64,000 bases of DNA from a bacterium (GCA_021822485.1 JAKAQP010000002.1:10120-74119), one strand, 5' to 3'; shown: positions 9,975 to 27,283, counted from the stretch's first letter. Program-made: numbers and translations. The notes: generated by a model not told the origin, from the sequence alone.

Positions 9975-9977
9975 TAT

Positions 9978-10250: not shown

Positions 10251-10273
10251 TAATAAAACTTATCATATTTAAT

Positions 10274-10349
<76 letters not shown>

Positions 10350-10365
10350 CTTTAAACCGCAGTAT

Positions 10366-11530: not shown

Positions 11531-11583
11531 ATTAACCTCCGTTTTACATCATAATAATGGAATTGTTATCAATTTAATATATC

Positions 11584-11622
11584 TTGAATATATTATAAGA
11601 TTTGATTTATAATGAATCAAAT
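11584..11622 (+). promoter_or_regulatory. candidate lysR-gene promoter with a perfect dyad flanking the -10
   Basis: TTGAAT (11584-11589), 18 nt, TATAAT (11608-11613). The -10 sits at the centre of the perfect 8-bp inverted repeat ATTTGATT/AATCAAAT (11600-11607 / 11615-11622), 35 nt upstream of the LysR start codon. Confidence 0.4.
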
Positions 11623-11656
11623 GAATAATTTTTATAATTAAAATGATTATATACTC

Positions 11657-12547: not shown

Positions 12548-12802
12548 AGTTGTTCTTTTTTTGTGTATTTTTCCTAATATTAAAGTCTATTTTTGCCAAT
12601 GAAAAAGTTCCTGAACCTAAGTCAAAATTATACTGGAATATTATTTGAAAGGGCAAAATAGGATGCCTGTTTTAATTTTAAATTTTATAAAGTGCTAATT
12701 CTGGAATTAATTCAAAATGCTTATCTTCAGTCGAGGCAACAAGCAAATAAGTAAATCTTGTATAAATAATATACGATATGCACATTATAATTACATATAT
12801 AG

Positions 12803-13576
12803 TTAAAATTTAACATTAATATTAATGCTCGAAATTGTATTGAATGGTTTAAATCCCGCAGGAACAAGCGTTTGATATTCAAGTTCATAGTAGATAGCAA
12901 TATATATGTTTTTTACTATTTTCGTGCTCAATTTAGTTAAAGATTCGTAAAAAGAACCGCCTTTGTTTGCGAGATATGTCGTGATTTCCTCTTTAAACTT
13001 GACACCTTTGTTTAATTTCCAATGATACTTTGCTCGAATCATTGTCGTAATAGATCCAAAATACGGACCGCCGATAATTTTTTCCTGCCTTAATCCAGGC
13101 GCTAATTCTATGGACGCATTCATATTTTTAGAAATAATAAACTTTTTACCGTAGCCGATATTTTCGTATATTCTGTATCCGAATCCGGTAACAATATTCC
13201 TATCGAATCTTTCATCGGCAAAAATGTAGGAAGTTTTGTTGAAATAATAAGATGAATTTTCTTGCGTAATAAACCTTAAATAACTGAGCTGGCTATATTC
13301 TGTTATGTAATTGTAAACAAACCTGAGTTTATTATGCCATGGATAGTTTTTGTATTTTAGGTAGTCACGCGTATTTATATTAAATGACGGAATCGTTCCC
13401 GTCGTATTTGATATTCCAAGACCGATGCCCGCTTTTAGATTTTTATTATTTGTCTTTGTATTTGCATAAGATATTCCGGTAAAAACAATTAAATTTGCAA
13501 ATAAAATAAAGAATAATACAAAAATTAATTTACTTAAGATTTTAATGTAATTTTTTAAAATATTTATAATATGCAT
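12803..13576 (-). CDS. outer-membrane beta-barrel protein (DUF481/YdiY-like)
   Basis: The ORF runs to 13678, but the signal peptide (MHIINILKNYIKILSKLIFVLFFILFANLIVFTGISYA) starts at ATG 13576. Alternating amphipathic beta-strand pattern with Tyr/Gly-rich turns, and the C-terminal residue is Phe (NINVKF), as is typical of OMPs. Confidence 0.45.
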   Translation of the reverse strand: MHIINILKNYIKILSKLIFVLFFILFANLIVFTGISYANTKTNNKNLKAGIGLGISNTTGTIPSFNINTRDYLKYKNYPWHNKLRFVYNYITEYSQLSYLRFITQENSSYYFNKTSYIFADERFDRNIVTGFGYRIYENIGYGKKFIISKNMNASIELAPGLRQEKIIGGPYFGSITTMIRAKYHWKLNKGVKFKEEITTYLANKGGSFYESLTKLSTKIVKNIYIAIYYELEYQTLVPAGFKPFNTISSININVKF

Positions 13577-13628
13577 TAGATTAAATAATATGTTAAGATA
13601 TTCAAATTTGATTTGATATTGATAAAAA

Positions 13629-13904
13629 TTATCTTCTGATTGTTTTATGGCTGATTGTTTTATGGCCAGTCTGCTCAAATCTTATAACTTTCCGTTCTAA
13701 AAAGGGTTTATATTGAAAAACCGCTGCTGCGTTTTTAATTTTTAAAATCGTAAATAATTTTGGATGCATATTATTTTTAACCATAAGCCTATAAGAGCAT
13801 ATAAAATTTATCATTATCAATACTGGCGCAATACTGGCGGCCTTATTATAGGGCAATGCAAAAAAGACGGAAGAGTATATTTTTTCAATTATTAATTTTT
13901 TCAT
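13629..13904 (-). CDS. hypothetical 91-aa ORF (weak)
   Basis: Only an ORF call. No motif and no clear SD. It overlaps the extended N-terminus of the OMP ORF. Confidence 0.15.
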   Translation of the reverse strand: MKKLIIEKIYSSVFFALPYNKAASIAPVLIMINFICSYRLMVKNNMHPKLFTILKIKNAAAVFQYKPFLERKVIRFEQTGHKTISHKTIRR

Positions 13905-13940
13905 ATTAAAAATATAATAATCTTTTTAATTTATTAAAAC

Positions 13941-14128
13941 CCGCAGAGGTGGTTTGGCCGCAAACTCAGTTGGCAGTGAGTAAATAAAGAAATCTGTCCC
14001 TTTAATTTTTAATTCTTTAATTTAAACTGTTGCCGCTCAGAACTCCCTTCATATCTATCATAACAACTTTTTTCCGGTTTTAGCAAGCCTGAAAGTGGCG
14101 GGATAAGCTCCTCCGCCTGCTCCGCTAT
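13941..14128 (-). ncRNA. candidate structured RNA / cis-regulatory leader (class unknown)
   Basis: GC-rich patches (CCCGCAGAGGTGG, GGCCGC, GCCGCTCAG, GGCGGGATAAGCTCCTCCGCCTGCTCCGC) inside an otherwise very AT-rich 400-bp spacer. The distal pairing GCGGAGG/CCUCUGC is complete only on the - strand (G:U there, A:C on +). Local hairpins GGCGG-N11-CCGCC and ACUCA-N8-UGAGU. Confidence 0.25.
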
Positions 14129-14303
14129 AGTTAATAAATCTATTCATTTTTAAAACAATGTTATTTTTTTATAAAAAAAATTATAAAAAAAATTATTGAT
14201 TTAATTTTTTTTTTGTAATAAACTAAAAAGGATGTAAAAAAAATATAGCAATTGTCAAATCTATTTTTTTTAAATAATCTTTTAAAAATAAAATATAGGT
14301 TTA

Positions 14304-15188
14304 ATGTTGAAAAATCATATTATTTATTTTCCAGGCTGCGCAAATTCTTACGACCCTAAAACAAAAATAGAAAACATTTTTAGAGCATTAGATATAGATA
14401 TTAAGCCGGTTTCCGAATGGAACTGCTGCGGCGCTCCGCCATCGCACTATAAGCCGGATTTTTTTAATAAAGCGGTAATGCCCCTGAGAAATTTAGGTTT
14501 ATGTCAGAATGGCGGCGAAAATTTTTTATATTCCGGATGTTCGGTATGCGTAAATCAGATAAACGAATCCGTTAAACTTATAAATTCCGATTCCATGTTT
14601 AGAAAACAAGCGGATTACAGCCTGAAGCCGTTTAATGCTCAGCTTAAAGAATTTGAGCCTTTAAAGACGGGGGCGATTCATATTATAGATATTATTACAG
14701 ATACCGCGACCGAAGATAAACTGCTAAAAATCGTTCCGTCGAAAATAAAAGGGAATTCTATACTTCTATATACCGGATGCTACAACGATGAAGCTAGAAT
14801 AGAATCTTTAAAAAAAATATTCAAAATTATGGGTGCCGAAGTTAATATTTTTAATGATTGCTGCGGAGGCGAAAAATTGCAAAATATGACCCCGGTACAT
14901 TCTAAAAGAATTGAAAACGCAAATATAGCCGATAATTTTTTCAAACTAATAAACAAAAAAGCCGATGAAACAAATTCAGACTATATAGTCACGATTTGTT
15001 CTATGTGCGAAAAAAATATAGACGACGGCATGAAATTATCGGATTTAGATATATTTGCGCCGGTAATAGGCTTAGTAGAATTTATCGGTTTTATACTTGA
15101 TATTGAAGGTTGCGGAGAAATATTAAACAATATATTGTCTTGCGGAGTTAAACCTGAAAACGCAAAGTTAGAAGAGTACCGGATATAA
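14304..15188 (+). CDS. HdrB-like protein with two CCG domains
   Basis: 294 aa. Two complete C-Xn-CCG-Xm-C-X2-C motifs (YFPGC...NCCGAP...GCSVC and YTGC...DCCGGE...ICSMC). First gene of the Mo/W operon. Confidence 0.75.
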   Translation: MLKNHIIYFPGCANSYDPKTKIENIFRALDIDIKPVSEWNCCGAPPSHYKPDFFNKAVMPLRNLGLCQNGGENFLYSGCSVCVNQINESVKLINSDSMFRKQADYSLKPFNAQLKEFEPLKTGAIHIIDIITDTATEDKLLKIVPSKIKGNSILLYTGCYNDEARIESLKKIFKIMGAEVNIFNDCCGGEKLQNMTPVHSKRIENANIADNFFKLINKKADETNSDYIVTICSMCEKNIDDGMKLSDLDIFAPVIGLVEFIGFILDIEGCGEILNNILSCGVKPENAKLEEYRI

Positions 15189-15227
15189 AATAAAATAAAA
15201 TACTTTAATTAAAACGGAGGTAAAAAA

Positions 15228-17771
15228 ATGGATTTTGAGGAGTTAAAAAACGAAAAGTTCATGCGCGTAAAAGATAACAGGCTTATAAAAATAAAGCCTG
15301 ATCATCGTCCGCAGGAATCGACGAAAGAATACGACACTGTACGCTATTCCACCTGTACCAATATGTGCGAAAGCGGATGCGGTCTTAAAATATTCTTGAA
15401 AGACGGCAAAATTGTCGATGTTATGGGAGATCCGGAACACCCCCAGAACAGAGGCGGTCTTTGCTCTAAAGGCGTTGGCCAGATTCAATGGTGGTATGAC
15501 CCGCTAAGAGTTCATCATCCGATGATAAGGAAATCTTTAGCAGACGATTTTAAAAGGGTTTCATGGGATGATGCGCTTGATTTTGCGGCTGAAAGACTAA
15601 TAAAACTTCATGACGAATACGGCCCTGAGGCATTGACGGTTTTCAGAACGGGAAGATCTTCGTTCGGCAATAAAGAAGGCGGCGCGAGATTCGCCAGGAT
15701 ATTCGGTACGCCTAACGTTTACGGACAGGGACCTATATGCTGTGAAAGCCCCGGCGTTTCTATGAACTATGTTTTCGGCGCAAAAGGACTCGGCAGGCTT
15801 ATGAATCCTACTCAGGACTGGAAAAACTCCAAGTGTATTCTTGTAGTCGGCACAAATATGGCGGCGCAGGAAACTATTACGATGACCCACCTTCTCGATG
15901 CAAGAGATAACGGAGCATTTTTAATAGGCGTCGATCCGCGTTTTAACGCAACGCTTTCAAAATGCGATATAGGCATGAGAATCCGTTCGGGTTCGGACGC
16001 TATATTGTTTTTAGCTATGGGCAATATCATAATAAAAGAAAAACTTTATAATAAAGAATTTGTCGATAAATGGGTTGAAGGTTTTGAAGAGTATGCAAAA
16101 GAATGCGCTCAATGGACGCCTGAAAGAGCTGAAAAACTTACATACGTTCCCAAGGAAATGATTATAGAAGCCGCAAGAAGATTCGGCTCGGCAAGACCGG
16201 CATCCGTAACGGGAAATCTAGGTACTGCGCAGATATATAATTCGAACAACGTCAACAGGTCGATAGCGGCATTGTTAGCTCTTACCGGATCTATAGGCGT
16301 AAAAGGCGGCGGCTGGAACTGGCTGCATAACTGCCGTCCTCCTCTGAATTATGGACAAGATTTGAACGATCTGCCGGGTTTTAAAAGACCGCAGATAACG
16401 GACAAATTAATATCATGGGGAGACAGTTCGGTACCATGCATAATAAATGCGATGATGTATGAAAAACCCTATCCTGTTAAGGGTATTATATGGAACGGCG
16501 ACCATCTGCCGCAGTTTCCTAATTCATGGAAAATGGAAGAAGCGATGAAGAAAAATATAATTAATATTCATCTTTCCATATACCCAAACCATACATATAT
16601 GTTTAGTCATGTCGCGTTTCCTATAGCAATCTCCGTAGAAACAGACAGCGTTTGCCATCACGGGAACAACAGGCTCCTTCAGTGGCACAACAAAATAATA
16701 CCTTATCAGCATGAACACAGAGCCGATATCGATGTTTTCGACGGTCTTGCAAAAAGACTTAAAGGTAAAGCCGGACATTTCGATAAAGTCGAATTTAATC
16801 CGTGGGGATATTATAAAGAAGGTCCTGATAAAGGAAGAGTAAACGAAATTAAAATGACCGACTTCTTTAACGAGCAGGAATCGTTTACAAGAGGTATTAC
16901 TTACGAACTTCTTAATCCCGAAAAAAACCCGAAAGGCGGTTTGATGTGGCCCGTAATGTCGAAAGAAGAAGCTGTTTTCCAAGACGACGAAGCCGTTTTA
17001 AGGGGTAAATGGATAATGTATAAAGAAGGAGAAAATTATCCCGAATCCGACAAGAGATTCCCGACGCCTTCCGGCAAAATCGAATTAGCTTCCGAAGCTT
17101 TGGAAAAAATTGGCTGGTACAAAGTTCCTACGCAGGTTGAAGGTTCCGAATCGCCTCTCGGAAATTTTGAAAGAGCCAAGAAGTATCCGTTAGTACTGAA
17201 TACTACCAGAATAGCGCAGTCCTTCCACGAAGGAGGTCACTGGTGGCCGTGGAACGACGAACTCGAACCCGATAGAAATATAGAGATAAATCCAACTACC
17301 GCAGCGGTTATGGGCATCGAGGACGGAGACATGGTTATAGTAGAAAACGACAGAGGATGGGTTGAAGGTCCGGCATGGGTAACAGAAATGGTACCTGAAG
17401 ACGGAATATGGGCAAACTTCGGGTTTGACAGATATCAGCCGTTTCATCCGTATGAATCTATTAATACCGTTATAGACGATATTATAAAAGACCCGGTTTA
17501 TGGGCAGATACAGTTTAAAGCCGTCCTTTGCAGGGTTTATAGAAAAGGCGATACCGATCCGGATACTACCGCAAAAAAGACGCTTGAATTTTTGCAGAAA
17601 AGATTTCCGGAAGTTTGGGATCCTAAACACCAGGACAAAAATGTTATCGTAGGCAAATGGAAAAATCACTGGAAAGAATATCATGAACTTAGCATAGGCT
17701 GGAAAAAGCTTGTTAATTTTAAAGAGCCTGTCGAATGTACGCCTGTTTCCTGCGATATTCGTAAATACTAA
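15228..17771 (+). CDS. molybdopterin (Mo/W-bisPGD, MopB superfamily) oxidoreductase catalytic subunit, cytoplasmic, substrate unknown
   Basis: 847 aa with SD GGAGG. N-terminal FeS motif CTNMCESGC-X27-C (C-X3-C-X3-C-X27-C), no twin-arginine leader, candidate metal-ligand region GPICCESPG, and a C-terminal molybdopterin-binding barrel (IEINPTTAAVMGIEDGDMVIVEN) followed by an extra tail of about 90 aa. Confidence 0.85.
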   Translation: MDFEELKNEKFMRVKDNRLIKIKPDHRPQESTKEYDTVRYSTCTNMCESGCGLKIFLKDGKIVDVMGDPEHPQNRGGLCSKGVGQIQWWYDPLRVHHPMIRKSLADDFKRVSWDDALDFAAERLIKLHDEYGPEALTVFRTGRSSFGNKEGGARFARIFGTPNVYGQGPICCESPGVSMNYVFGAKGLGRLMNPTQDWKNSKCILVVGTNMAAQETITMTHLLDARDNGAFLIGVDPRFNATLSKCDIGMRIRSGSDAILFLAMGNIIIKEKLYNKEFVDKWVEGFEEYAKECAQWTPERAEKLTYVPKEMIIEAARRFGSARPASVTGNLGTAQIYNSNNVNRSIAALLALTGSIGVKGGGWNWLHNCRPPLNYGQDLNDLPGFKRPQITDKLISWGDSSVPCIINAMMYEKPYPVKGIIWNGDHLPQFPNSWKMEEAMKKNIINIHLSIYPNHTYMFSHVAFPIAISVETDSVCHHGNNRLLQWHNKIIPYQHEHRADIDVFDGLAKRLKGKAGHFDKVEFNPWGYYKEGPDKGRVNEIKMTDFFNEQESFTRGITYELLNPEKNPKGGLMWPVMSKEEAVFQDDEAVLRGKWIMYKEGENYPESDKRFPTPSGKIELASEALEKIGWYKVPTQVEGSESPLGNFERAKKYPLVLNTTRIAQSFHEGGHWWPWNDELEPDRNIEINPTTAAVMGIEDGDMVIVENDRGWVEGPAWVTEMVPEDGIWANFGFDRYQPFHPYESINTVIDDIIKDPVYGQIQFKAVLCRVYRKGDTDPDTTAKKTLEFLQKRFPEVWDPKHQDKNVIVGKWKNHWKEYHELSIGWKKLVNFKEPVECTPVSCDIRKY

Positions 17772-17783
17772 AATTAAATTTAA

Positions 17784-17838
17784 CCGGAAATTTGCATAGA
17801 TAATTTCATTGAAATAATGATAATATGCAAATTTCCGG
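17784..17838 (+). other. perfect 15-bp inverted repeat (intercistronic stem-loop)
   Basis: CCGGAAATTTGCATA (17784-17798) and TATGCAAATTTCCGG (17824-17838) with a 25-nt AT-rich loop, between the catalytic and FeS subunit genes. No U-tract follows. Confidence 0.6.
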
Positions 17839-17883
17839 ACGTTAAAAGAAATTTAACTTAAATAAAAAAATAGGAGTATAAAT

Positions 17884-18540
17884 ATGTCTTCGGAATACGG
17901 ATTTGACAGATTTCACCTTGGAGAAGAAAGAGCTTCCAGGATTACCCTGAAGTCTTCCACTCCAAAATATTCAATGAAGGTTAATATAGATAGATGCATA
18001 GGCTGCATGTCTTGCGAAGTATCTTGCAAAAAAGAACACAATCTTCCCGTCGGGCCCCGCAGAATGAGAGTTATACAGGTTGGACCTTATTTTATTAAAA
18101 AAGGACAACTAAAAACTGTTTATCTTCCCATGAACTGTTTTCACTGCGACGATGCGGCATGCGTAAAAGCCTGCCCTACAGGTTCTATGCAGAAAAGAGC
18201 AGACGGTATCGTATTTAACGACCCGAATACCTGTATCGGCTGTAAATCTTGCATACACGCTTGTCCTTTCGGTTCTCCGCAGTTTAACGAAGCAACGGGA
18301 AAAGTAACGAAGTGCGATTACTGCAAACACAGAATTGACGTAGGACTTTTGCCGGCATGCGTAACTTTGTGTTCGACCGATGCATTATGGTTCGGCAATA
18401 TAAACAGAATATCGACCATTGACAGAGAAAAGACTGCCAGAAAATTAACGGAACATTTATTTGGTTTTATTGCTCCTAATCCAAGCCAAATGGGAACATC
18501 AAACGTAAACGATACCGATAATGAGGTTAAAGTCGGATAA
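17884..18540 (+). CDS. four-cluster 4Fe-4S electron-transfer subunit (DmsB/PsrB/NrfC family), no Tat leader
   Basis: 218 aa with SD AGGAG. Four Cys groups: CIGCMSCEVSC, CFHCDDAACVKACP, CIGCKSCIHACP, CDYC...CVTLC. Confidence 0.85.
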   Translation: MSSEYGFDRFHLGEERASRITLKSSTPKYSMKVNIDRCIGCMSCEVSCKKEHNLPVGPRRMRVIQVGPYFIKKGQLKTVYLPMNCFHCDDAACVKACPTGSMQKRADGIVFNDPNTCIGCKSCIHACPFGSPQFNEATGKVTKCDYCKHRIDVGLLPACVTLCSTDALWFGNINRISTIDREKTARKLTEHLFGFIAPNPSQMGTSNVNDTDNEVKVG

Positions 18541-18595
18541 TTAAATATTTGACTATATTTGTAATGATATTAAAAATAAAACAAGGAGGTTATTT

Positions 18596-18841
18596 ATGGC
18601 AGAGATACTAAAGTCGGGAACCGTTTATAATGCGCCTATAAGAGTCGACTATTCAAACGGAGATTTCGATAAGGCTGAAGAAGCATTAAAAAAAGAAAAC
18701 GTTCATATCGTAGGAAGAAACGTCGCAAGCGTGACTCCTTACCATGCAACTATATTCGTAAGTTTAGAAGAAGAAGAAAAAGCTATAAAGACTATTAAAA
18801 AAGCGGGAATAAAAACATACCCCGTAGAACCATATTTTTAA
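18596..18841 (+). CDS. small (81 aa) protein of unknown function, likely accessory subunit
   Basis: Strong SD AAGGAGG 7 nt upstream of the ATG. No Cys residues or cofactor motif. A strong hairpin follows it. Confidence 0.5.
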   Translation: MAEILKSGTVYNAPIRVDYSNGDFDKAEEALKKENVHIVGRNVASVTPYHATIFVSLEEEEKAIKTIKKAGIKTYPVEPYF

Positions 18842-18849
18842 TTAACTTT

Positions 18850-18890
18850 AACAATAATAGCCGTCAAAACTATAGACGGCTATTATTGTT
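18850..18890 (+). terminator. hairpin terminator/attenuator after the 81-aa gene
   Basis: Perfect 16-bp inverted repeat AACAATAATAGCCGTC / GACGGCTATTATTGTT with a 9-nt loop. The 3' arm runs into TTGTTTTG. Confidence 0.5.
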
Positions 18891-18909
18891 TTGAAAAAAT
18901 AAAAACTCC

Positions 18910-20199
18910 ATGCAGGATAAAAAAACCGCTAAAACATTACTTGATATTACCGCTGAAAATATTAAAAAAATTAAGGACAGCGAAATTATTTCCGTTGAAG
19001 ATTCGCTCGGCAGAATAATATCGGAAGATATAATTCCGAAAAACGAGGTTCCTCCTTTTATAAGATCGGCCGTTGACGGTTTTGCGGTTATATCAAGCGA
19101 TTTTTTAGAAAAAAAAATAAATAAATTCAGGGTAGAAAACCAAATAACCGCAGGTTATTCAAAAGAAATAAAACCGCTTAATTCGGGAGAAGCCGCTTTC
19201 GTAACTACGGGCGCTCCTATTCCTTCCAATGCCGACAGCGTGGTATTAATAGAAGAAGTAGAAGAATATGCCGGCGGATATATGATTTACAAAAAGAAAG
19301 TAGAAAAAGGTTCGTATATATCTCCCATAGGAGACGACATTAAGGCGGGTGAAGTCCTTTTTAAGAAAGGCCATAGAATAAGATTATGCGATATTGCCGC
19401 CTTATCCGGAATAGGAATGAGTTCGGTTTCCGTTTATAAAAAACCTCTGGTAGGAATATTGTCCGGCGGAAATGAACTTACTGCGCCCGGCGAAAAATTA
19501 AAAAAAAATAGGATATATGATATAAATACCACCGTTCTTAAATCTTTAGTTAAAGATGCAGGAGGCGTTCCTGAAGTAATAGGCGCCGTTGAAGATGATT
19601 TTGAAAAAATAACTCAAACATTAAAAGAAGCCGACGAGTCTTCAAAATACGATCTGATTATATCTACCGGTGGAACGGGCGCCAGTTTTTTGGTTTTGGA
19701 AAATAAAGAGATAAAAAACTTTTACGACCTGGTTCCTTCCGCTATAGAAAAGACTGGAAAATTATTGTTCCACGGAGTAAAATTAGTTCCCGGCAAGCCG
19801 ACGTCGTTCGGCATGCTTAATAACGGCACGCCTATTTTTGCGCTTGCGGGCTGGCCTTATTCCGTTCTAATTACGTTCGACCTGTTCGTAAGGCCTGCTG
19901 TACAAAGAATGTCTAACTATAAAGACCTGTATAAAAGGTACCCTTCCGTTAAAGCCGCTTTAAAAAATGATATAATAAAAGAAGAAGGCGTAAGAAAATA
20001 TTTTCAGGTTAAGTTAACTAAAAGCGGCGATTTTTTATATGCGGAAATAATATCCGCTCCTAAGCCTCCGTCTGCCGCAAGATCATTAAGTCCAATGATA
20101 AAAGCCGACGGCAGTTTTGTCATGGAAGAGCATATTACGAATTTAAAAGCCGGATGTTTTATAGACGTTACGTTAAACGATTACGAAATAGAATATTAA
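18910..20199 (+). CDS. moeA: molybdopterin molybdotransferase MoeA
   Basis: 429 aa. MoeA-type domain order with VTTGAPIP, the MoCF-binding core STGGTGAS, and PGKPTSFG. Confidence 0.85.
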   Translation: MQDKKTAKTLLDITAENIKKIKDSEIISVEDSLGRIISEDIIPKNEVPPFIRSAVDGFAVISSDFLEKKINKFRVENQITAGYSKEIKPLNSGEAAFVTTGAPIPSNADSVVLIEEVEEYAGGYMIYKKKVEKGSYISPIGDDIKAGEVLFKKGHRIRLCDIAALSGIGMSSVSVYKKPLVGILSGGNELTAPGEKLKKNRIYDINTTVLKSLVKDAGGVPEVIGAVEDDFEKITQTLKEADESSKYDLIISTGGTGASFLVLENKEIKNFYDLVPSAIEKTGKLLFHGVKLVPGKPTSFGMLNNGTPIFALAGWPYSVLITFDLFVRPAVQRMSNYKDLYKRYPSVKAALKNDIIKEEGVRKYFQVKLTKSGDFLYAEIISAPKPPSAARSLSPMIKADGSFVMEEHITNLKAGCFIDVTLNDYEIEY

Positions 20200-20211
20200 T
20201 AAAAAATAATT

Positions 20212-21054
20212 ATGAAACAGCATTTATTTGAATTATTTGAAAATAAAGAATACGATTCAAATTTTGAAAGATTTAAATTTAAAATCCCGTCCTTAAGAGT
20301 TTCTCTTTTGGGCAAATGCAATGAAAACTGTTTTTACTGCCATAACGAAGGCGTTCCCAAAAAAATTTCTTCGACTATTCAGACCGGAGATATAATAAAC
20401 GTCGTATATTCGCTTAAAAATTTCGGACTTAAAAAAATTAAATTTACCGGCGGCGAACCTCTGCTCTATAAAGATTTAAAAAATCTTTTATATAAGGTCA
20501 AACATATCAATGATTTAAAACTATATATTACGACTAACGGCACTCTTATAAGAAAAAGAATAAAAGACCTTAGCCCTAATATTATAGATAAAATATCTGT
20601 AAGCTTAGATACGTTAGACGCTCATTTTTATAAATATATTACAGGTAAAGACTACTTAGACGAAGTTTTTTTAGGGCTTCGGATGCTAAAAAAATTCGGT
20701 TATAATGTAGAAATAGACGCAGTTTTACTGAAAAATATAAATTCTGCAAAGCCGTCATTAAACGAATTAATAGATTATTGCGTAAATAACGATTTTGATT
20801 TGCAGTTTATAGAATTATCGAACGAAACTGACGAGGCTTTGTATTCGAAGTTTTATGTCGACCCATACTTAACGTTAAAGAAAGCGGGATTAGATTTTTC
20901 AAACAACGATACAAACGACAGACAGTTTTTTAAAATTAAAAATTCTAAAATTACGCTATGCAGAAAGGTAAACGATGTCTGTAAATCTACCGGAGACAGA
21001 TGCAGCGGCATGAGGCTTCTGCCTAACGGCGTTCTTAGAAATTTCTATTATTAA
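20212..21054 (+). CDS. moaA: GTP 3',8-cyclase MoaA-like radical SAM protein (compact)
   Basis: 280 aa. CNENCFYC (C-X3-C-X2-C) radical-SAM cluster, GGEPLL motif, and C-terminal Cys triad C...C...C followed by RLLPNGVL (the MoaA second-cluster region). Confidence 0.7.
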   Translation: MKQHLFELFENKEYDSNFERFKFKIPSLRVSLLGKCNENCFYCHNEGVPKKISSTIQTGDIINVVYSLKNFGLKKIKFTGGEPLLYKDLKNLLYKVKHINDLKLYITTNGTLIRKRIKDLSPNIIDKISVSLDTLDAHFYKYITGKDYLDEVFLGLRMLKKFGYNVEIDAVLLKNINSAKPSLNELIDYCVNNDFDLQFIELSNETDEALYSKFYVDPYLTLKKAGLDFSNNDTNDRQFFKIKNSKITLCRKVNDVCKSTGDRCSGMRLLPNGVLRNFYY

Positions 21055-21077
21055 ATATTAGAGGTAAATAAACTTAA

Positions 21078-21563
21078 ATGATAGTCGAACTTAAAGGAAA
21101 AGAAGCCGGGTTAACGTTTGAATGCATGCATATAGTGCCTGGAAGAGGAGACTGTTCTAGAATACATCCTCATTTCCATTACGTGAACGTTTTAATAGAC
21201 GGAGAATTCGACGATAAAAGAAGGATAGTCCATCTATATAACTTAAAAGCGGTTATAAAAAGAATATGTTCTATGTTTGAAGATAAAATATTAATAGCCG
21301 ATTATCCGGAAAGCGTTCAGCGTATTGCCATAGAAGAACAGCATTACAGAATTGAAATTAACGGCAAAATGTATCTTATACCGAAAGCCGATATTTTTAA
21401 AATAAAGTGCCCGTCGCTTAATATTGAAGATTTGACGGTTTATTTCGCCGACGAACTTGCCTCAGATTTAAAAAACAGAGAAATGTTTAACCCTATAAAT
21501 TATTTTGAAGTTACGTTAAGCGAAGGCCACGGTCAAAGAGGCAGAATAAAGATAGAGTTATAA
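21078..21563 (+). CDS. divergent PTPS/QueD-like (T-fold) protein embedded in the Moco cluster
   Basis: 161 aa with SD AGAGG. FECMHIVPGRGDCSRIHPHFHYVNV aligns with the QueD signature FSSAHALRGYQGKCENVHGHNWKVE of the paralogue at 4810 (His, Cys, H-x-H conserved, one residue shorter). Confidence 0.45.
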   Translation: MIVELKGKEAGLTFECMHIVPGRGDCSRIHPHFHYVNVLIDGEFDDKRRIVHLYNLKAVIKRICSMFEDKILIADYPESVQRIAIEEQHYRIEINGKMYLIPKADIFKIKCPSLNIEDLTVYFADELASDLKNREMFNPINYFEVTLSEGHGQRGRIKIEL

Positions 21564-21588
21564 TTTTGCGACCGTGTTATTTAATTAA

Positions 21589-22542
21589 ATGCAAAAATTG
21601 AGCTGTATAATACTTGCCGGCGGCGAATCTAAAAGATTTGGAGAAAATAAAGTTTTTTTTAATTTTAACGGAAAATCATTTATAGAAAGAGCGGCAGAAA
21701 CAGCGTTAAAATTAAATGGAGATATAATAATTTCGGCAAGAGAAAAAGAAAGCGCCGAACTGTATAGTAATGAATTAAAAAAAAAATTGAATATAAATCC
21801 GCATGTAATAGCTGACGATAAAAACTGCGGCTTTATAGGGCCGCTTAGAGGAATTTACAGTTGTATTAAGCATCTTAAAGGCAAATACGTTCTTGTTATG
21901 GAATGCGACGCGCCTTTATTTAATTTTTCGGCGGCAAACGAGCTTATAAAAAAAATGGAGAAGGAGAAAGTCTGTGCGGTACTGCCTTTATGGCCGGATT
22001 CTACCGTAGAGCCGCTCCTCGGTATTTATAATATAAAAAAAACGGCTACAATTTTAGATATGTTAAACGATTATGCATTGAATCTTGAAAAAAATTTTCT
22101 TTTTAAGGATTCGGTGAATATTTCAAGATTTTTGCCGTCCGTATATTATTACAATATATTAGATATAATAAGAAAAAATTCGGATTTAAAAATTGAATTT
22201 TTTATGAATATTAATTCTAAGGACGATATTGAAAATTACTTGGCGGGAAAAATTAATACCGGTAGAAAAAAATACGCTAAAAGCGTAAAAATAAGAAAGG
22301 CAAACAGATTTTTCGACGTAAAAAATCCGGCGGGGAAACCGTTAGGCATACTTGCAAACGCGCTTTATTACTGGTGGATATATTCAAAAACGGGAAATTA
22401 CATATATTTAAAAAAGTCATACAGTTGTTTTAAAAAAGACGCCGATAAATATTATGCAGACGGATTAGATTTTATGGGCGGAAAATTAATTAAAACGATA
22501 CGCGGCCATGTAGGTGCATTTAGTCAAGAAATATGCAAGTAA
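21589..22542 (+). CDS. mobA: molybdenum cofactor guanylyl/cytidylyltransferase (MobA-like) with an uncharacterised C-terminal extension of about 120 aa
   Basis: 317 aa. N-terminal ILAGGESKRFG nucleotide-binding motif and a MobA-like fold up to about residue 190. The remaining Tyr/Lys-rich tail has no motif I recognise. Confidence 0.7.
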   Translation: MQKLSCIILAGGESKRFGENKVFFNFNGKSFIERAAETALKLNGDIIISAREKESAELYSNELKKKLNINPHVIADDKNCGFIGPLRGIYSCIKHLKGKYVLVMECDAPLFNFSAANELIKKMEKEKVCAVLPLWPDSTVEPLLGIYNIKKTATILDMLNDYALNLEKNFLFKDSVNISRFLPSVYYYNILDIIRKNSDLKIEFFMNINSKDDIENYLAGKINTGRKKYAKSVKIRKANRFFDVKNPAGKPLGILANALYYWWIYSKTGNYIYLKKSYSCFKKDADKYYADGLDFMGGKLIKTIRGHVGAFSQEICK

Positions 22543-22572
22543 ACAAAAATAATAAAATAAAAAGAGGTTGTT

Positions 22573-23121
22573 ATGAGTAAAAAACTTACCAATTTAGAGG
22601 AAGATTTAAAGAAAAATCAAATAGAAATAATGCTCTATCCCTCAAAATGCGACGGATGCGAAAGCGAAGGTTTTGCGGCATGCGTAAAAGCATGCGAATC
22701 GCATATGGCTGAAAAATACGGCTCAAAATATACGGGAGCCAGAATAAATATAAAAAAGAAAGGAAACAAATTTTTTCCTCTGATATGCCACAATTGCGAT
22801 GAGGCGCCATGCGTCGATGCATGTATGCCGGGTGCAAGATATAAAGACTTGGAATCGGGATGGACGGTAACAAACTATAAAAAATGCGTCGGATGCTGGA
22901 TGTGCGTAATGTCGTGTCCGTTCGGAGCTATAGAAAGAATAGGAAAAGGCCATTTTGCTTCAAAATGCGACGGCTGTTCGGACGAGGATACCCCGAAATG
23001 CGTAGAAGCCTGTAAGAAAGGGGCACTAAAAAGAATAGGAATTAAAAATTATTCATATGAAAGAAGACTTTCCGTCGCAAAAAAAATATACGGACCATAT
23101 ATAAAATCAATAGTTAAGTAA
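22573..23121 (+). CDS. polyferredoxin (multiple 4Fe-4S sites)
   Basis: 182 aa with SD AGAGG. Cys groups CDGCESEGFAACVKAC, CHNCDEAPCVDAC, CVGCWMCVMSCP, CDGC...CVEAC. Confidence 0.75.
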   Translation: MSKKLTNLEEDLKKNQIEIMLYPSKCDGCESEGFAACVKACESHMAEKYGSKYTGARINIKKKGNKFFPLICHNCDEAPCVDACMPGARYKDLESGWTVTNYKKCVGCWMCVMSCPFGAIERIGKGHFASKCDGCSDEDTPKCVEACKKGALKRIGIKNYSYERRLSVAKKIYGPYIKSIVK

Positions 23122-23142
23122 TATTAAAAAGGGGACAAGATT

Positions 23143-24468
23143 ATGAAATACGTTATTATAGGAAATTCATACGCGGGCTTATCCTGCGCCGATGCAATCA
23201 GGCGTTTCGACAAGTCCGGAGAAGTCGTAATAATATCTGACGAAAACTATAGGGCTTATGCTAGGCCTTTGATTTCATATTATTTAGAAGGAAAAACTAC
23301 AGACGAAACAATATGGTATAAAGAAGACGATTATTACGAAAAAAATAATTTCGATTTAATGCTTGGGAAAAAAGTAGTTTCAGTAGATACCTCTGCTAAA
23401 AGGTTAGTTTTGGATGACGGATCTGCCGTGAATTACGACAAACTTTTTATAGGCCCGGGGGGAACGCCTTTTATACCGCCGACGGAAGGATTTAATCCGG
23501 ATTCTCCTATGATGGGTACCTTTACCAGGTTCGACGATGCAAAAAAAATGGAAAAAGCTGCAAAAATGTCTAAAAGAAAAGAGGCGATAGTCGTAGGCGG
23601 CGGACTTATAGGGCTTAAGGCATCCGAAGGACTAAGAGCCTTAGGGCTTCATACGACGATAGTAGAATTACTGCCGAGAGTTCTGGGACTTGCTCTCGAC
23701 GAAGTATCCGGAAATATTACGTCTAAAAGACTTAACGAAAACGGCATAGATACGGCTACCGGCGAAACCGTTACCAAGATTAATTTAGACGAATCCGGCA
23801 ATCCGGTCAGCGTTTTATTGAAAAGCGGCAAAGAATTGCCTGCGGATATCGTCGTAGTCGGCGTAGGCGTAAGACCCAACGTCGGATTTCTCGAGGGAAG
23901 CGGAATAAAAATAGACAGAGGCATAATAGTCGATAAAACTATGATGACGAACGTTAAGGACGTATATGCCGGAGGAGACGCCGCCGTAATTTACGATATA
24001 TTGAACAAGCGTCCGAATATTATTGCAATAGTGCCTCTGGCTTGCGAAGAAGGCAGGGTTGCAGGTACGAATATGGCAGGCGTTTACAGGGAATACCCGG
24101 GCGGTATGGGTTTAAATTCCGTCGAAATTTACGGACTTCCGATAGTGACTATAGGTTTAACCAATCCTTCTAACGAAACGCAAAATGTTTACGTATTTCA
24201 AGACGATAAGATTTACAGAAAATTAGTATACGACGGAGAAGTTCTCGTAGGAGCCATACTCCTCGGCGATATTTCCGGCAGCGGAATATTATCCGCAATT
24301 ATAAGGCAGGGATTAAAATGCCTCAAATATAAAGACGAATTTTTAAACGGCAACATATATTCGTTCGTTATAGATAACGAATTTGAAATATACAATATAA
24401 ATGAAGGTTACGCCATAAGGGGAGACTTCGAAGACCTTCCCGAATTTTCAAGGACTAACTGGCGGTAA
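23143..24468 (+). CDS. FAD-dependent pyridine-nucleotide oxidoreductase (NirB N-terminal / rubredoxin-reductase-like)
   Basis: 441 aa with SD GGGGA. FAD fold VIIGNSYAGLS, NAD(P) fold VVGGGLIGLKASE, GGDAA motif. There is no CoA-disulfide-reductase-type active-site Cys (the sequence there reads YARPLISYYL). Confidence 0.8.
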   Translation: MKYVIIGNSYAGLSCADAIRRFDKSGEVVIISDENYRAYARPLISYYLEGKTTDETIWYKEDDYYEKNNFDLMLGKKVVSVDTSAKRLVLDDGSAVNYDKLFIGPGGTPFIPPTEGFNPDSPMMGTFTRFDDAKKMEKAAKMSKRKEAIVVGGGLIGLKASEGLRALGLHTTIVELLPRVLGLALDEVSGNITSKRLNENGIDTATGETVTKINLDESGNPVSVLLKSGKELPADIVVVGVGVRPNVGFLEGSGIKIDRGIIVDKTMMTNVKDVYAGGDAAVIYDILNKRPNIIAIVPLACEEGRVAGTNMAGVYREYPGGMGLNSVEIYGLPIVTIGLTNPSNETQNVYVFQDDKIYRKLVYDGEVLVGAILLGDISGSGILSAIIRQGLKCLKYKDEFLNGNIYSFVIDNEFEIYNINEGYAIRGDFEDLPEFSRTNWR

Positions 24469-24597: not shown

Positions 24598-24792
24598 ATG
24601 AATAGCGAAAACGAAAAGCCTCTTACCGTTTTACTGGAAGAGTTATTAATAGAAGTGCGCTCCGTATCTTCCGAAAATTTCGATAAGTGGTATGAAAAGA
24701 AAAGGAAGGTTTTTAACATAGGCGTTAAAAATTATCCCACGAAAGAAGAATTCATAAAATATGTAAACTACGCATTAAGCATCGGGCATTAA
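24598..24792 (+). CDS. hypothetical 64-aa protein
   Basis: ORF only, with a weak SD (GGTGA). No motif. Confidence 0.3.
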   Translation: MNSENEKPLTVLLEELLIEVRSVSSENFDKWYEKKRKVFNIGVKNYPTKEEFIKYVNYALSIGH

Positions 24793-24857: not shown

Positions 24858-27191
24858 TTATTTCAGTTTTTCCATCAGGGGTTTCTTGATGTAGTCTAAC
24901 GCAACCATATAAATAAAAGTCGCCGCAAGCAGTATAAATATATATGTGAAAGGAACTTTAGCCATGAGTATGCCGAAACCCGCCATTAAAGTTATAATTA
25001 TTAAATCTAAAGCGCTTGCAATCATCAAATAGTTTCCCGGCTTAGAACTCCAGAAATGACGTTCTTCTCTTACTAAATAAACGGTTGCCTGTGCGCTGAA
25101 TACTAAAGATAAAAACGTAAATGTTTGAACCTCAGGCAAGCTCATTCCTATAGAGTAATACCCGATATAATATGAAATAAAAGAATAAATCAGCCATGCT
25201 CCAGCTATTATAAGAGATGCCGATACTATAAGTTTTATTTTCCATTTATCCGGTTTATTGGAATATACTGCATTGTCTTTAGCTATAGACATAGTTACAA
25301 AATCGTTCGCAAAAATCAATATAAGAATAAGTTTTGGAGTAGTAACGAACTTCCCGAAAAATATAAGACCTAAACTCAAAAAAAGAGCAACCTGAAAAGT
25401 TTTTGATATTTTATTTAAAGTATAAGTCAGCATTCTCCTGTAAACCATTCTGCCGTATTTTACGGCATCCACGATATTTGCAAGACCCGGTTCCGTCAAT
25501 ATCAGGCTCGCCGATGCCTTTGCAACGTCCGTGGCATTAGCTACGGCAATGCCGACCTCCGCCTGTTTAAGCGCAGGTGCATCGTTTACTCCGTCCCCAG
25601 TCATTCCGGTAATCTTTTTTAGTTTCTGCAAACCCTGTACGAGATGAAACTTGTCTTCGGGGAAAACTCCCGCAAACACGTCACATCCGGATGGATTTTT
25701 AAATTTTTCTTTAGTGCAGACATTGTCCCCAAGCCCGATTAAGCCGGCAGTTGTTTTAGCGGTGAGTTCCGTATCTCCGGTAACCATACGCACTCTAATT
25801 CCTAATTTTTTAAGTTCATTTAATAATTTTTTAGAATCTTTCCTTGGAGGATCGGAAAGTCCTAAAATTCCGACAGCAAAATATTTATTTTCTTTTTCGT
25901 TTTTAATAGTTACTGCTATTACTCTATAACCCATAGCCTCGAATTTTTCGGATGCTTCTCTAAGTTTTTTTGCATCGTTTTCGTCGAGATTTTTTTCAAC
26001 TATTATAGGCGAACCTTTAATCGAACTAATTAATTTTTTTTCGCCTTTTTCAGATACTTCGAGCAATGCTTCCGCTCTTTTCGTCTGGGGGTCGAACGGC
26101 GTAAATTTAACCGTTTTTCCTATTTCCGGCAGGCTCAATTTATTGTTTTTTATGTAAGACAATATAGATAAATCTATGGGGTCCTGCGTAGATTCATCTG
26201 ATGCCGCCGCTGCGTAAGCAAAAAGTTCATTTTCGCCGAAAGGTTCAATCGGTTTAAAATCCGTAAGAAAAAGCGCATTTTCAGTTAAAGTGCCGGTTTT
26301 ATCGGAACATAATTCTTCCATAGATGCAATATCTTCTATTGCTGAAAGATGCGTTACCAATATTCCTCTGTTTGCAAGTTCCATAGAAGCAAGCGCTGTA
26401 GCCAAAGTAAAAGTAACCGGAAGAGCGACCGGTATAGACGCTACTAAGAGGATTAAAGCAAAGGGCAGCATTTCGGCAAAATTCAATTTGTATATAAGGG
26501 CGTATGCAAGTATTAAAACTACGAGAATGCCGTCAATCATAATAAAATAGCGTACGATTTTTAAAATTAATTCTTCTATATGGCCCTTAGTTTTTGCCGA
26601 TTTTATAAGTTCCGCCGTTTTCCCGAAATAGCTTTTTTCACCGGTCGCCGTAACCTTGCAGGTGGCTTCTCCTCTTTTAATTACGGAACCGGAATATACG
26701 AGTCCGCCTTCGTTTCTATCTACGGGCTGAGATTCTCCGGTTAAAGCCGACTGGTCAACCAATACGTTACCGGAAATAATTTCGGTATCCGCCGGAACCA
26801 AATCGCCCATTCGTACGTGAATTGCGTCTCCCGGAACCAATTGTTCCGCACTTAATTTGACCCACTTTCCGTCCCTTAAAACCCTGGACATAATTTTTAA
26901 CTGCTTTTTCAAAAGTTCGAGAGCTTTTTCAGCCTTATTTTCCTGCTGAAAAGATATTATAGCGTTAAATAGGATTAAACCGATAATAATATATGCTTCT
27001 ATGTTTTTTCCGAGTATTAATTCGATAATAAAGGTAAACTCAAGCATCCACGCAACAGGATTCCAAAATTTTAAAAGAAAAATTTCGACGGGATGCTTTT
27101 TTTTCTCTTTTATTTCGTTTAATCCATAACGTTTAGTCAGTTCTTCTGCTTCCGAAGACGATAGCCCTTTAATTTCTTTGTCCATATCCAT
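24858..27191 (-). CDS. P-type cation-transporting ATPase, P3A (plasma-membrane H+-ATPase)-like
   Basis: DKTGTLT phosphorylation site, TGES, MVTGD, GDGVNDAPALK. N-terminal GLSSSEAEELTKRYGLNEI and a length of about 777 aa resemble prokaryotic P3A pumps. The ORF track starts at 27248, but the first 19 codons translate repeat copy B. ATG 27191 (MDMDKEIKG) has a GGAG 9 nt upstream. Confidence 0.85.
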   Translation of the reverse strand: MDMDKEIKGLSSSEAEELTKRYGLNEIKEKKKHPVEIFLLKFWNPVAWMLEFTFIIELILGKNIEAYIIIGLILFNAIISFQQENKAEKALELLKKQLKIMSRVLRDGKWVKLSAEQLVPGDAIHVRMGDLVPADTEIISGNVLVDQSALTGESQPVDRNEGGLVYSGSVIKRGEATCKVTATGEKSYFGKTAELIKSAKTKGHIEELILKIVRYFIMIDGILVVLILAYALIYKLNFAEMLPFALILLVASIPVALPVTFTLATALASMELANRGILVTHLSAIEDIASMEELCSDKTGTLTENALFLTDFKPIEPFGENELFAYAAAASDESTQDPIDLSILSYIKNNKLSLPEIGKTVKFTPFDPQTKRAEALLEVSEKGEKKLISSIKGSPIIVEKNLDENDAKKLREASEKFEAMGYRVIAVTIKNEKENKYFAVGILGLSDPPRKDSKKLLNELKKLGIRVRMVTGDTELTAKTTAGLIGLGDNVCTKEKFKNPSGCDVFAGVFPEDKFHLVQGLQKLKKITGMTGDGVNDAPALKQAEVGIAVANATDVAKASASLILTEPGLANIVDAVKYGRMVYRRMLTYTLNKISKTFQVALFLSLGLIFFGKFVTTPKLILILIFANDFVTMSIAKDNAVYSNKPDKWKIKLIVSASLIIAGAWLIYSFISYYIGYYSIGMSLPEVQTFTFLSLVFSAQATVYLVREERHFWSSKPGNYLMIASALDLIIITLMAGFGILMAKVPFTYIFILLAATFIYMVALDYIKKPLMEKLK

Positions 27192-27202
27192 ATTTATTCT
27201 CT

Positions 27203-27240
27203 CCAATTTGTGACAGGGGCAGAATTGAATTATGTCCCCA
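27203..27240 (-). repeat. palindromic box-hairpin element, copy B
   Basis: CCAATTTGTG box plus ACAGGGGCAGAATT-G-AATTATGTCCCCA. On the mRNA-sense strand its box region supplies the GGAG SD of the ATPase gene. Confidence 0.8.
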
Positions 27241-27244
27241 TTTT

Positions 27245-27283
27245 CCAATTTGTGACAGTGGCAGAATTCAATTCTGTTCCTGT
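27245..27283 (-). repeat. palindromic box-hairpin element, copy C
   Basis: CCAATTTGTG box plus ACAGTGGCAGAATT-C-AATTCTGTTCCTGT. About 88 percent identical to copy A over 50 nt, including the shared flank CCTGTATTTA. Confidence 0.8.

Follow-up and report, generated by a model that had tools for sequence, protein, structure and literature searches.

An operon for a predicted soluble, NAD(P)-linked Mo/W-pterin enzyme of an uncharacterised MopB clade

I analysed a stretch of bacterial DNA of 64,000 nucleotides (GCA_021822485.1, JAKAQP010000002.1:10120-74119; hereafter the window), in which an operon lies on the plus strand at positions 14304-24468. It is very likely that this operon encodes a soluble, cytoplasmic enzyme with a molybdenum- or tungsten-pterin (Mo/W-pterin) cofactor, and that its catalytic subunit belongs to an uncharacterised and sharply delimited clade of the MopB superfamily. 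The best explanation of the operon as a whole, to which I assign a probability of about 0.5, is a soluble NAD(P)-linked MopB enzyme, with sulfite:NAD(P)+ oxidoreductase as the best guess for its activity. A preliminary description, made from the sequence alone, had called it an eleven-gene operon. The genes are indeed co-directional and separated by short gaps (12-112 nt), but exactly ten open reading frames (ORFs) lie within these coordinates, and the list given in that description also comes to ten:

14304-15188, plus strand: HdrB-like protein (CCG protein), 294 aa
15228-17771, plus strand: MopB catalytic subunit of an uncharacterised clade, 847 aa
17884-18540, plus strand: Fd4, a DmsB/PsrB-type ferredoxin with four [4Fe-4S] clusters, beta subunit, 218 aa, Pfam Fer4_11
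18596-18841, plus strand: p81, an orphan small subunit or assembly factor, 81 aa, no Cys
18910-20199, plus strand: MoeA (Mo/W insertase), 429 aa, Pfam MoeA_N and MoCF_biosynth
20212-21054, plus strand: atypical MoaA-like radical-SAM protein, 280 aa
21078-21563, plus strand: PTPS/QueD-like T-fold protein, 161 aa, Pfam PTPS
21589-22542, plus strand: MobA, C-terminally extended, 317 aa, NTP_transf_3
22573-23121, plus strand: Fd2, a second four-cluster ferredoxin, 182 aa
23143-24468, plus strand: PNDR, an FAD/NAD(P)H:ferredoxin-type oxidoreductase, AorC/PadH-like, 441 aa, Pyr_redox_2 and Rubredoxin_C

Pfam and NCBIfam agree with every domain assignment made before, while none of the operon proteins reaches an NCBIfam equivalog cut-off. 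The reading as a soluble, cytoplasmic enzyme with a Mo/W-bis-PGD (bis-pyranopterin guanine dinucleotide) cofactor was supported, as neither a twin-arginine translocation (Tat) leader nor a membrane anchor was found. No anchor of the NrfD type is encoded in the operon or its flanks, and no transmembrane-like segment was detected in the operon proteins (highest 19-residue Kyte-Doolittle mean 1.88). The strongest Shine-Dalgarno sequence of the operon (AAGGAGG) precedes the p81 ORF, as had been pointed out.

The catalytic subunit and its clade

The 847-aa protein carries the Molybdop_Fe4S4, Molybdopterin and Molydop_binding domains of Pfam (54, 113 and 67 bits, all above cut-off), which places it in the MopB/DMSO-reductase superfamily. 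The unusual FS0 motif noticed earlier was read again as C43-x3-C47-x3-C51-x27-C79, and no RR pair lies in residues 1-40. A C-terminal tail is present as well, but it extends about 80 aa past the last Pfam domain rather than about 90. The tail occurs throughout the clade; in the AlphaFold2 (AF2) model, its first ~40 residues are confident helices, and its last ~35 are disordered and lineage-specific.

It was found that the clade is a compact family, new within a known superfamily and equipped with a distinctive set of subunits. In a search of 5.8 billion proteins, about 28 clusters were 49-92% identical to the MopB subunit; below these, identity falls to 39% and then to 33% or less (mostly 22-29%). 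Clade members are at least 50% identical among themselves. When 1.84 billion representatives at 50% identity were searched exhaustively with HMMER, 27,543 MopB relatives were returned in total. The whole clade is a single representative there (1505 bits), followed by a sister group and then by fewer than 10 intermediates (498-700 bits) before the generic MopB continuum. Identity to anything characterised is about 30% at most. The NCBIfam scores of the MopB subunit are 3-10 times under cut-off (Fdh-alpha, 280 bits against 666; PhsA, 230 against 694; NasC, 190 against 1100; NasA, 71 against 1000). Its best PDB sequence matches are HDCR FdhF, F420-FDH, FdhH, acetylene hydratase and Psr, at 277-331 bits. 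The AF2 model (pLDDT 80.7) matched FdhH, Nap and acetylene hydratase equally well (TM-score 0.77-0.83; 22-24% identity), and the PDB relatives are 18-24% identical in structure-based alignments. With every NCBIfam cut-off missed and such distant structural relatives, the enzyme does stand outside the textbook Psr/Phs/Ttr/Dms/Nar/Nap/Nas/Fdh types. It did not nest inside a characterised clade, the result named beforehand as a refutation.

The active site was read from MAFFT and HMMER alignments, which were concordant; the AF2 model has low confidence in the Cys171 loop and in the conserved FHExGHWWPW segment. The nearly invariant Cys171 aligns with Sec140 of FdhH and Cys141 of acetylene hydratase. 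By this position it is the probable metal ligand, the identification of which had been proposed as a check. The CX3CX3C spacing of the FS0 cluster is unusual. Cys171 is followed by Cys/Thr172 and an invariant Glu173. His367 occupies the column of FdhH Arg333, and Arg370 lies three residues further. The nearly invariant Glu48, after the second FS0 Cys, has the position of the catalytic Asp13 of acetylene hydratase. Past the fourth FS0 Cys, Lys81 is retained, and many Trp residues are invariant in the clade. An argument from an Arg shared by Nap and Fdh was dropped, as E. coli NapA aligned no Arg in that column.

Is the enzyme a formate dehydrogenase (FDH), as an annotation by KEGG Orthology would give (K00123/K00124)? 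The best profile and PDB matches are FDH alpha subunits, and published Acidulodesulfobacterales metagenome-assembled genomes (MAGs) are listed with one fdoG and one fdoH each, expressed and without fdoI (supplement of PMC6776010; 2019). However, Cys/Thr172 and Glu173 follow the ligand in place of the catalytic His (FdhH His141), His367 stands at the Arg333 position in both alignments, with the caveat that Arg370 might substitute spatially, and the Fdh-alpha score (TIGR01591) is far below its cut-off. Since the Glu173/His367 arrangement replaces the His and the Arg, the MopB subunit is without the FDH catalytic dyad. The residues differ at both catalytic positions and the curated score was missed; FDH was rejected and is highly improbable. 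The published fdoG/fdoH entries are presumably the present cluster, mis-assigned, and the annotation "formate dehydrogenase" in Acidulodesulfobacteriota is probably corrected here.

The same residues could suggest a hydration or hydroxylation of a small neutral molecule, as in acetylene hydratase, with the FeS/NAD module serving reductive activation only. Glu48 at the Asp13 position, Cys171 in place of Cys141 and the many invariant Trp residues fit this, and acetylene hydratase is among the top sequence and fold matches. Acetylene hydratase is a monomer without electron-transfer partners, however, while two ferredoxins and a flavoprotein are conserved and slowly evolving here, so that such a reaction has very little probability.

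Core, NAD module and accessory genes

The window belongs to a Candidatus Acidulodesulfobacterium, an organism of acid mine drainage. The same 847-aa protein is encoded in GCA_027319425.1, and MopB is 89-99% identical in about 28 genomes of Candidatus Acidulodesulfobacterium, Acididesulfobacter and unclassified acid-mine-drainage bacteria. All ten genes were found in the same order in 20 Acidulodesulfobacteriota genomes. By BLAST, nine of the ten are also present in this order in 4-5 Sulfobacillus-like Bacillota MAGs of similar habitats. Their MobA slot holds a 183-aa NTP_transf_3 gene that was unmatched by BLAST, and their PNDR gene is followed by a gene for a MOT1-type molybdate transporter. 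This conservation of gene order is far above chance. Since the Sulfobacillus-like MopB is closer to that of the window (61-62% identity) than the MopB of any other lineage, the acid-mine-drainage version has probably been exchanged between Acidulodesulfobacteriota and Sulfobacillus. A MOT1-type transporter gene adjoins several clusters, a neighbour that slightly favours Mo over W. Besides Acidulodesulfobacteriota and Bacillota (Sulfobacillus), the clade has members in Nitrospirota, Chloroflexota (Ardenticatenales, Anaerolineae), Actinomycetota (Thermoleophilia, Gaiellales), Rhodobacteraceae, Altiarchaeales and Hydrothermarchaeota.

Core and accessory genes were told apart by tblastn of the ten operon proteins against 82 loci. 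MopB, Fd4 and p81 form an invariant trio across 8-9 phyla; it was found in Acidulodesulfobacteriota, Bacillota, Nitrospirota, Chloroflexota, Actinomycetota, Rhodobacteraceae and Altiarchaeales, and an ORF of 91-93 aa takes the position of p81 in Hydrothermarchaeota. In all lineages, the MopB gene is immediately followed by that of Fd4 (50-62% identity). As described before, Fd4 is a DmsB/PsrB-type ferredoxin, with a Fer4_11 domain, 16 Cys in four motifs and no Tat motif. The CCG, MoeA, MoaA-like, PTPS-like and MobA genes are present only in the acid-mine-drainage version, that is, in Acidulodesulfobacteriota and Sulfobacillus. Thus, when the quartet of hdrB-like, MopB, FeS and 81-aa genes was surveyed as had been proposed, MopB, Fd4 and p81 turned out to be kept widely, while the CCG gene is lineage-specific.

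The conserved partner that the preliminary description had passed over is p81, which stands beside this MopB clade in nearly all lineages. It adjoins a MopB-clade gene in every locus examined, with 40-54% identity across phyla. It has no Pfam or NCBIfam match; its family comprises 86 clusters among the 5.8 billion proteins, none with a Pfam domain, and these are named "hypothetical protein" where they are named, save for two evidently mis-assigned JGI labels. The AF2 model of p81 (pLDDT 68) has a beta-alpha-beta-beta-alpha ACT/ferredoxin-like fold, and Foldseek gave weak, generic ACT/PII-like matches in the PDB (E 2e-3 or weaker). A NapD-like chaperone was ruled out (hhalign probability 0.14 against E. 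coli NapD).

The FeS chain and the NAD(P)H flavoprotein reported earlier were both recovered, as two four-cluster ferredoxins and PNDR. The polyferredoxin Fd2 has 16 Cys in four cluster motifs; its NCBIfam match is the N-terminus of PadI, and its PDB matches are HycB-type proteins, the FeS subunit of WOR5 and AorA (8c0z_C, E 1.8e-10). The best PDB match of PNDR is AorC over its full length (8c0z_E, E 6.7e-52, residues 1-404), and its NCBIfam scores are 284 bits for PadH (equivalog cut-off 475) and 228 bits for the NirB N-terminus. Pyr_redox_2 and Rubredoxin_C were found in it, which confirms the earlier call of an FAD/NAD(P)H oxidoreductase, and no active-site Cys of the CoADR/Nox type was seen when its N-terminal motif was read directly. 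A PNDR free of redox Cys thus adjoins a four-cluster Fd2, as in the AorA/AorC-type (PadI/PadH-type) module. Fd2 and PNDR adjoin the core in most bacterial lineages (Acidulodesulfobacteriota, Sulfobacillus, Nitrospirota, Ardenticatenales and Thermoleophilia) and also in one Altiarchaeales locus. The core has a different flavoprotein of 506 aa as its partner in Rhodobacteraceae, and a second Fd4-type protein in Hydrothermarchaeota. In a second Altiarchaeales copy (locus L077, 1055-7017, minus strand), the core is divergent to genes for NuoE-like and NuoF-like proteins and a 1060-aa Fer2/Fer4/HdrA-like fusion, a different and possibly bifurcating NADH module.

A gene for a NarJ-family chaperone is present in most clusters outside acid mine drainage, some of which also have VWA, AAA or Mrp-type maturation genes. 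In one Nitrospirota group, a 773-aa VWA-domain protein, probably a maturation factor, is encoded between p81 and the NarJ-like chaperone (L086, 13718-16039; L039-L041, L072).

Within Acidulodesulfobacteriota, the genes evolve at different rates. Mean identity is high for MopB (94%), Fd4 (93%), PNDR (89%) and Fd2 (88%), intermediate for the PTPS-like protein (82%), p81 (79%) and MoeA (75%), and low for the MoaA-like protein (66%), the CCG protein (63%) and MobA (58%), the fastest-evolving gene of the set. Thus, MopB, Fd4, Fd2 and PNDR are slow (88-94%), and CCG, MobA and MoaA-like are fast (58-66%).

The CCG protein is HdrB-like with two CCG motifs, as had been seen: Pfam CCG matches it twice, and the motif residues are Cys12/41/42/79/82 and Cys159/186/187/232/235. 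It is colinear over its full length with the HdrB of the same genome (22% identity, E 9e-22) and with its SdhE-like protein (23%, E 1e-12), but it scores 34 bits against a cut-off of 345 and is not an HdrB equivalog. The ten motif Cys are kept in all orthologues, including that of Sulfobacillus at 22% identity; in an Acidulodesulfobacterium locus (L018), the first CCG motif reads CCA, with the Cys retained. Since all ten Cys survive at such low identity, the protein is, by sequence, a genuine cluster binder. It evolves like a maturation or accessory factor. The view that it is part of the conserved enzyme had to be given up, as it is confined to the acid-mine-drainage version and is far less conserved there than MopB and Fd4.

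The operon had also been likened to class II benzoyl-CoA reductase, that is, to a complex for flavin-based electron bifurcation that would include the HdrB-like subunit as an integral partner in catalysis. The CCG gene does lie 39 nt upstream of the MopB gene, its cluster ligands are intact in two phyla, and the Altiarchaeales copy mentioned above is divergent to NuoE/NuoF/HdrA-like genes. However, no bifurcating flavoprotein of the HdrA, MvhD, NuoEF, Etf or NfnB type is encoded in the operon, PNDR is a simple FAD protein like AorC, and the CCG protein is fast-evolving and missing from most lineages. Since the bifurcation components are missing, the analogy is unsupported, and such a complex is improbable here. 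Moreover, BamB is a member of the AOR family, not of MopB.

The operon does contain its own cofactor-assembly genes, as stated before (MoeA, MoaA-like, PTPS-like and MobA). The NCBIfam scores of MoeA are 237-304 bits, under the cut-offs. The gene called MoaA encodes an atypical MoaA-like radical-SAM paralogue. It has the CX3CX2C motif and scores 166 bits against a MoaA cut-off of 231, but it is without Mob_synth_C and is truncated at the C-terminus as judged against archaeal-type MoaA. Of its three C-terminal Cys, two are absent from the Sulfobacillus orthologue. The PTPS-like protein (Pfam PTPS, E 1.3e-7) keeps His18 and Cys26-x3-His30-x-His32, so that its Zn and catalytic motif is intact, and its gene has the same position in Sulfobacillus. 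It was found that the MoaA-like protein is always paired with the PTPS-like T-fold protein inside an operon for the molybdenum cofactor (20212-21563 in the window; 14621-16046 in L088), a pairing known from the loci compared here, as a word-index search for PTPS-like homologues yielded close relatives only. It is possible that the pair stands in for MoaC or acts in a modified pterin route. The window has another, separate QueD-type gene at 4810-5193. In MobA, NTP_transf_3 covers residues 6-157 and is followed by a C-terminal extension of about 160 aa; a fused NarJ-type chaperone was ruled out for this extension (hhalign probability 0.2).

Two further genes downstream bear on the extent of the operon:

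24598-24792, plus strand: conserved 64-aa ORF, 129 nt past the PNDR gene and outside the end of the operon as described
27446-27988, plus strand: MobB (Pfam MobB), a loosely attached syntenic neighbour

The 64-aa ORF is probably the eleventh gene of the operon. It lies directly 3' of the PNDR gene in every Acidulodesulfobacteriota locus that reaches past PNDR (63-96% identity); it has no Pfam match and is not present in Sulfobacillus. MobB is encoded 1-3 kb downstream of the operon in most relatives, and MobB and Dus are conserved downstream neighbours. Only some related genomes have the P-type ATPase gene (24858-27248, minus strand) that separates the operon from MobB here. It flanks the operon together with genes for a LysR regulator and a DUF481 protein. 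Upstream of the operon, no molybdenum-cofactor riboswitch or leader RNA matched Rfam at the gathering threshold or at E up to 5, and promoter and terminator scans of the operon did no better than on shuffled sequence.

Some other features of the window were noted. The region 9974-14304 is a strain-variable insertion with tRNA genes at 10051 and 10274 and genes for GNAT, methyltransferase, LysR and DUF481 proteins and a 91-aa ORF. It is missing in L001 and L005-L007, where a DHODB-like/GltD-like (NfnAB/SudAB-like) pair, at 7670-9974 in the window, lies just upstream of the CCG gene. Genes for a CBS-domain protein and for a membrane protein of the HPP family, which includes nitrite transporters, lie at 30194-31392 (plus strand), 6 kb past the operon; no connection with the operon was established. 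A type-E succinate dehydrogenase/fumarate reductase is encoded at 35980-39561 (plus strand), with a flavoprotein of 558 aa, an FeS subunit of 332 aa and an SdhE-like CCG "anchor" of 295 aa. A true HdrC-HdrB-HdrA-MvhD cluster lies at 53100-60028 (plus strand), 29 kb from the operon and positionally unrelated to it, and is followed by genes for FrhB-like/Fer4, Fer4_22 and NAD_binding/DHODB-type (Flx-like) proteins. The gene at 60052-61989 (plus strand) encodes a threonyl-tRNA synthetase with the editing domain PF08915, which is archaea-specific according to Pfam, in a bacterial genome.

Sulfur neighbourhoods and the candidate substrate

In the proposed scheme, electrons would pass along NAD(P)(H) - FAD - 4 FeS - 4 FeS - FS0 - Mo/W, involving neither the membrane nor quinone, and without bifurcation. 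The acid-mine-drainage version would have recruited MoeA, the MoaA-like/PTPS-like pair, MobA and the HdrB-like CCG protein as accessories. The substrate may come from cytoplasmic inorganic sulfur metabolism, as suggested by gene neighbourhoods in other organisms. In one Nitrospirota group (L086, L038, L041), adk-sat-aprBA-qmoABC lies directly upstream of the cluster, with TusA nearby. In a second Nitrospirota group (L043, L046, L056, L089), qmoAB-hdrCB is divergent from the cluster, and aprA lies beyond in L043. In an Ardenticatenaceae genome (L083/L060), the cluster is embedded in a locus for type II sHdr, electron-transfer flavoprotein, LbpA and lipoate assembly, while an Anaerolineales MAG (L068) has Emo/LbpA/lipoate-assembly genes just upstream. 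A DsrMK-like pair lies upstream in an Anaerolineae contig (L055), and a TauE/SafE gene in a Gaiellales contig (L082). The HdrB-like protein in the window was also counted here. It is known that sHdr-LbpA oxidises sulfane sulfur to cytoplasmic sulfite and that type II sHdr occurs mainly in Chloroflexota, Actinobacteriota and Bacillota (PMC11094781); these phyla also carry the MopB clade. By this guilt by association, a link to sulfur metabolism is about an even bet.

Which sulfur compound may be the substrate? The best guess is sulfite, oxidised to sulfate with reduction of NAD(P)+, which would make the enzyme a soluble functional counterpart of the membrane-bound SoeABC. The E0' of sulfate/sulfite is about -516 mV, well below that of NAD(P)+ (-320 mV), and the AorAC and PadHI modules serve low-potential donors. 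Since sulfite is a low-potential donor like the substrates of AorAC and PadHI, sulfite:NAD(P)+ oxidoreductase was ranked first, an NAD(P)H-dependent reductase of a sulfur compound second, and a reductase of nitrate or another oxyanion third. Sulfite as the specific substrate is nevertheless a tentative assignment.

An NAD(P)H-dependent cytoplasmic reductase of polysulfide/persulfide, tetrathionate, trithionate or thiosulfate would be found in the same neighbourhoods, and in the acid-mine-drainage version the CCG protein, which retains all cluster ligands, could handle the thiol, disulfide or persulfide product. Acid mine drainage is rich in tetrathionate and polysulfide. Among the NCBIfam matches, PhsA ranks second, and Psr is among the top PDB sequence matches. 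However, the PhsA score of 230 bits is to be read against 694, no Tat leader and no PsrC are encoded, the reduction of thiosulfate (about -400 mV) is uphill from NAD(P)H, and most lineages with the enzyme are without the CCG protein. Membership in PhsA/PsrA itself was rejected by the score, by the absence of an RR motif and by the absence of a transmembrane protein in the operon or flanks. A reductase of this kind is doubtful, but it is the most probable of the alternatives weighed here.

A cytoplasmic reductase of nitrate or another oxyanion (arsenate, selenate, chlorate), resembling NasBC/NasCA with extra FeS subunits, was also considered. PNDR resembles the NirB N-terminus, NasC scores 190 bits, the MopB fold is closest to the Fdh/Nap group, and the NarJ-family chaperone accompanies most clusters outside acid mine drainage. 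On the other hand, the NasC score compares with a cut-off of 1100, NarJ-type chaperones serve many MopB enzymes, and no nitrite reductase or nitrate transporter was found among the annotated or BLAST-screened neighbours in 78 related loci. NasC/NasA membership was rejected by both scores (190 against 1100, 71 against 1000) and by the lack of a nitrogen-gene context. An oxyanion reductase is unlikely.

Several points weigh against the sulfite:NAD(P)+ oxidoreductase. No sulfur context was found around the Thermoleophilia and Hydrothermarchaeota copies or around most of those of Rhodobacteraceae and Altiarchaeales. Glu48 and Glu173 are predicted near the metal, which would be unexpected for an oxyanion pocket. 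Organisms with Apr/Sat or SoeABC already have a route for sulfite (PMC4378227). The comparison with SoeABC covers architecture and gene context, and no SoeA model is among the NCBIfam matches.

Literature searches on a soluble or NAD-dependent sulfite dehydrogenase and on molybdopterin in Hydrothermarchaeota turned up nothing relevant. Molybdo-enzymes are unmentioned in two papers on Acidulodesulfobacterales, and in the papers on Sulfobacillus the only ones described are membrane SoeABC, Ttr, Nas and Fdh.

If the sulfur assignment is true, the clade would fill a gap in cytoplasmic sulfur oxidation and disproportionation, namely the disposal of sulfite and the gain of reducing power in sHdr-type oxidisers, acidophiles and disproportionators that are without, or do not rely on, SoeABC or Apr/Sat. 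With sulfite as the substrate, cytoplasmic sulfite from sHdr, rDsr, SOR or desulfonation would yield NAD(P)H directly, bypassing quinone and reverse electron flow. That this sulfite:NAD(P)+ oxidoreductase is combined with a MoaA-like/PTPS-like pair supplying the pterin precursor in place of MoaC is a more speculative, joint reading. Whatever the substrate, the clade is a compact, cross-domain MopB family with a Cys-x-Glu active site, a Glu after the second FS0 Cys and an obligatory partner protein that is an orphan. The clade also shows that MopB enzymes, too, can be served by an NAD module of the AorA/AorC type, and the MoaA-like/PTPS-like pair in an operon for the molybdenum cofactor is an unexplained lead in cofactor biosynthesis.

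Comparison with known systems

Judged by sequence, AorABC is a better structural analogy than class II benzoyl-CoA reductase and is the nearest solved analogue of the NAD module. AorABC, the NAD+-linked W aldehyde oxidoreductase of Aromatoleum aromaticum (8c0z), is likewise soluble and cytoplasmic and has the same wiring, from the pterin enzyme through the AorA polyferredoxin and the FAD of AorC to NAD+. However, its catalytic subunit is a W-bis-pterin protein of the AOR family, while that of the operon is MopB (bis-PGD), and the operon has an additional DmsB-type beta subunit and p81. In BamBCDEFGHI, too, a pterin enzyme is encoded together with a protein of the Hdr type and a module related to NAD(P)H. 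In contrast, BamB is AOR-type, and BamE (HdrA-like), BamF (MvhD-like) and BamGHI (NuoEFG-like) are without a counterpart in the operon.

Among MopB enzymes, the FDHs (HDCR FdhF, 7qv7; FdhH, 1aa6) give the best sequence and fold matches and share the position of the Cys/Sec ligand, the FS0 domain and the Lys after the fourth FS0 Cys. They differ in identity (19-24%, structure-based), in FS0 spacing (CX2CX3C, against CX3CX3C here) and in the catalytic His/Arg that are replaced here, and the operon MopB has its ~80-aa C-terminal tail. Acetylene hydratase (2e7z) shares the carboxylate after the second FS0 Cys (Asp13 and Glu48, respectively) and the Cys ligand, with a similar score; it is monomeric and non-redox, whereas the operon has conserved electron-transfer partners. 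NasBC/NasCA also combine a cytoplasmic MopB with a NirB-like FAD/NAD(P)H subunit, but they have no four-cluster ferredoxins and no p81, and the operon is without a nitrogen-metabolism context.

SoeABC resembles the operon in having a Tat-less MopB and a four-cluster FeS subunit in the cytoplasm, and the logic of its gene neighbourhoods is similar; functionally it is tied to sulfite from rDsr or sHdr. However, SoeABC has a membrane anchor, the NrfD-type SoeC, and quinone as its acceptor, whereas the operon is without a membrane subunit and its partner is NAD(P)(H). Membership in SoeABC by way of SoeC was rejected, as the operon encodes no membrane protein. This lowers the probability that the enzyme is a Soe, but not that it works like one.

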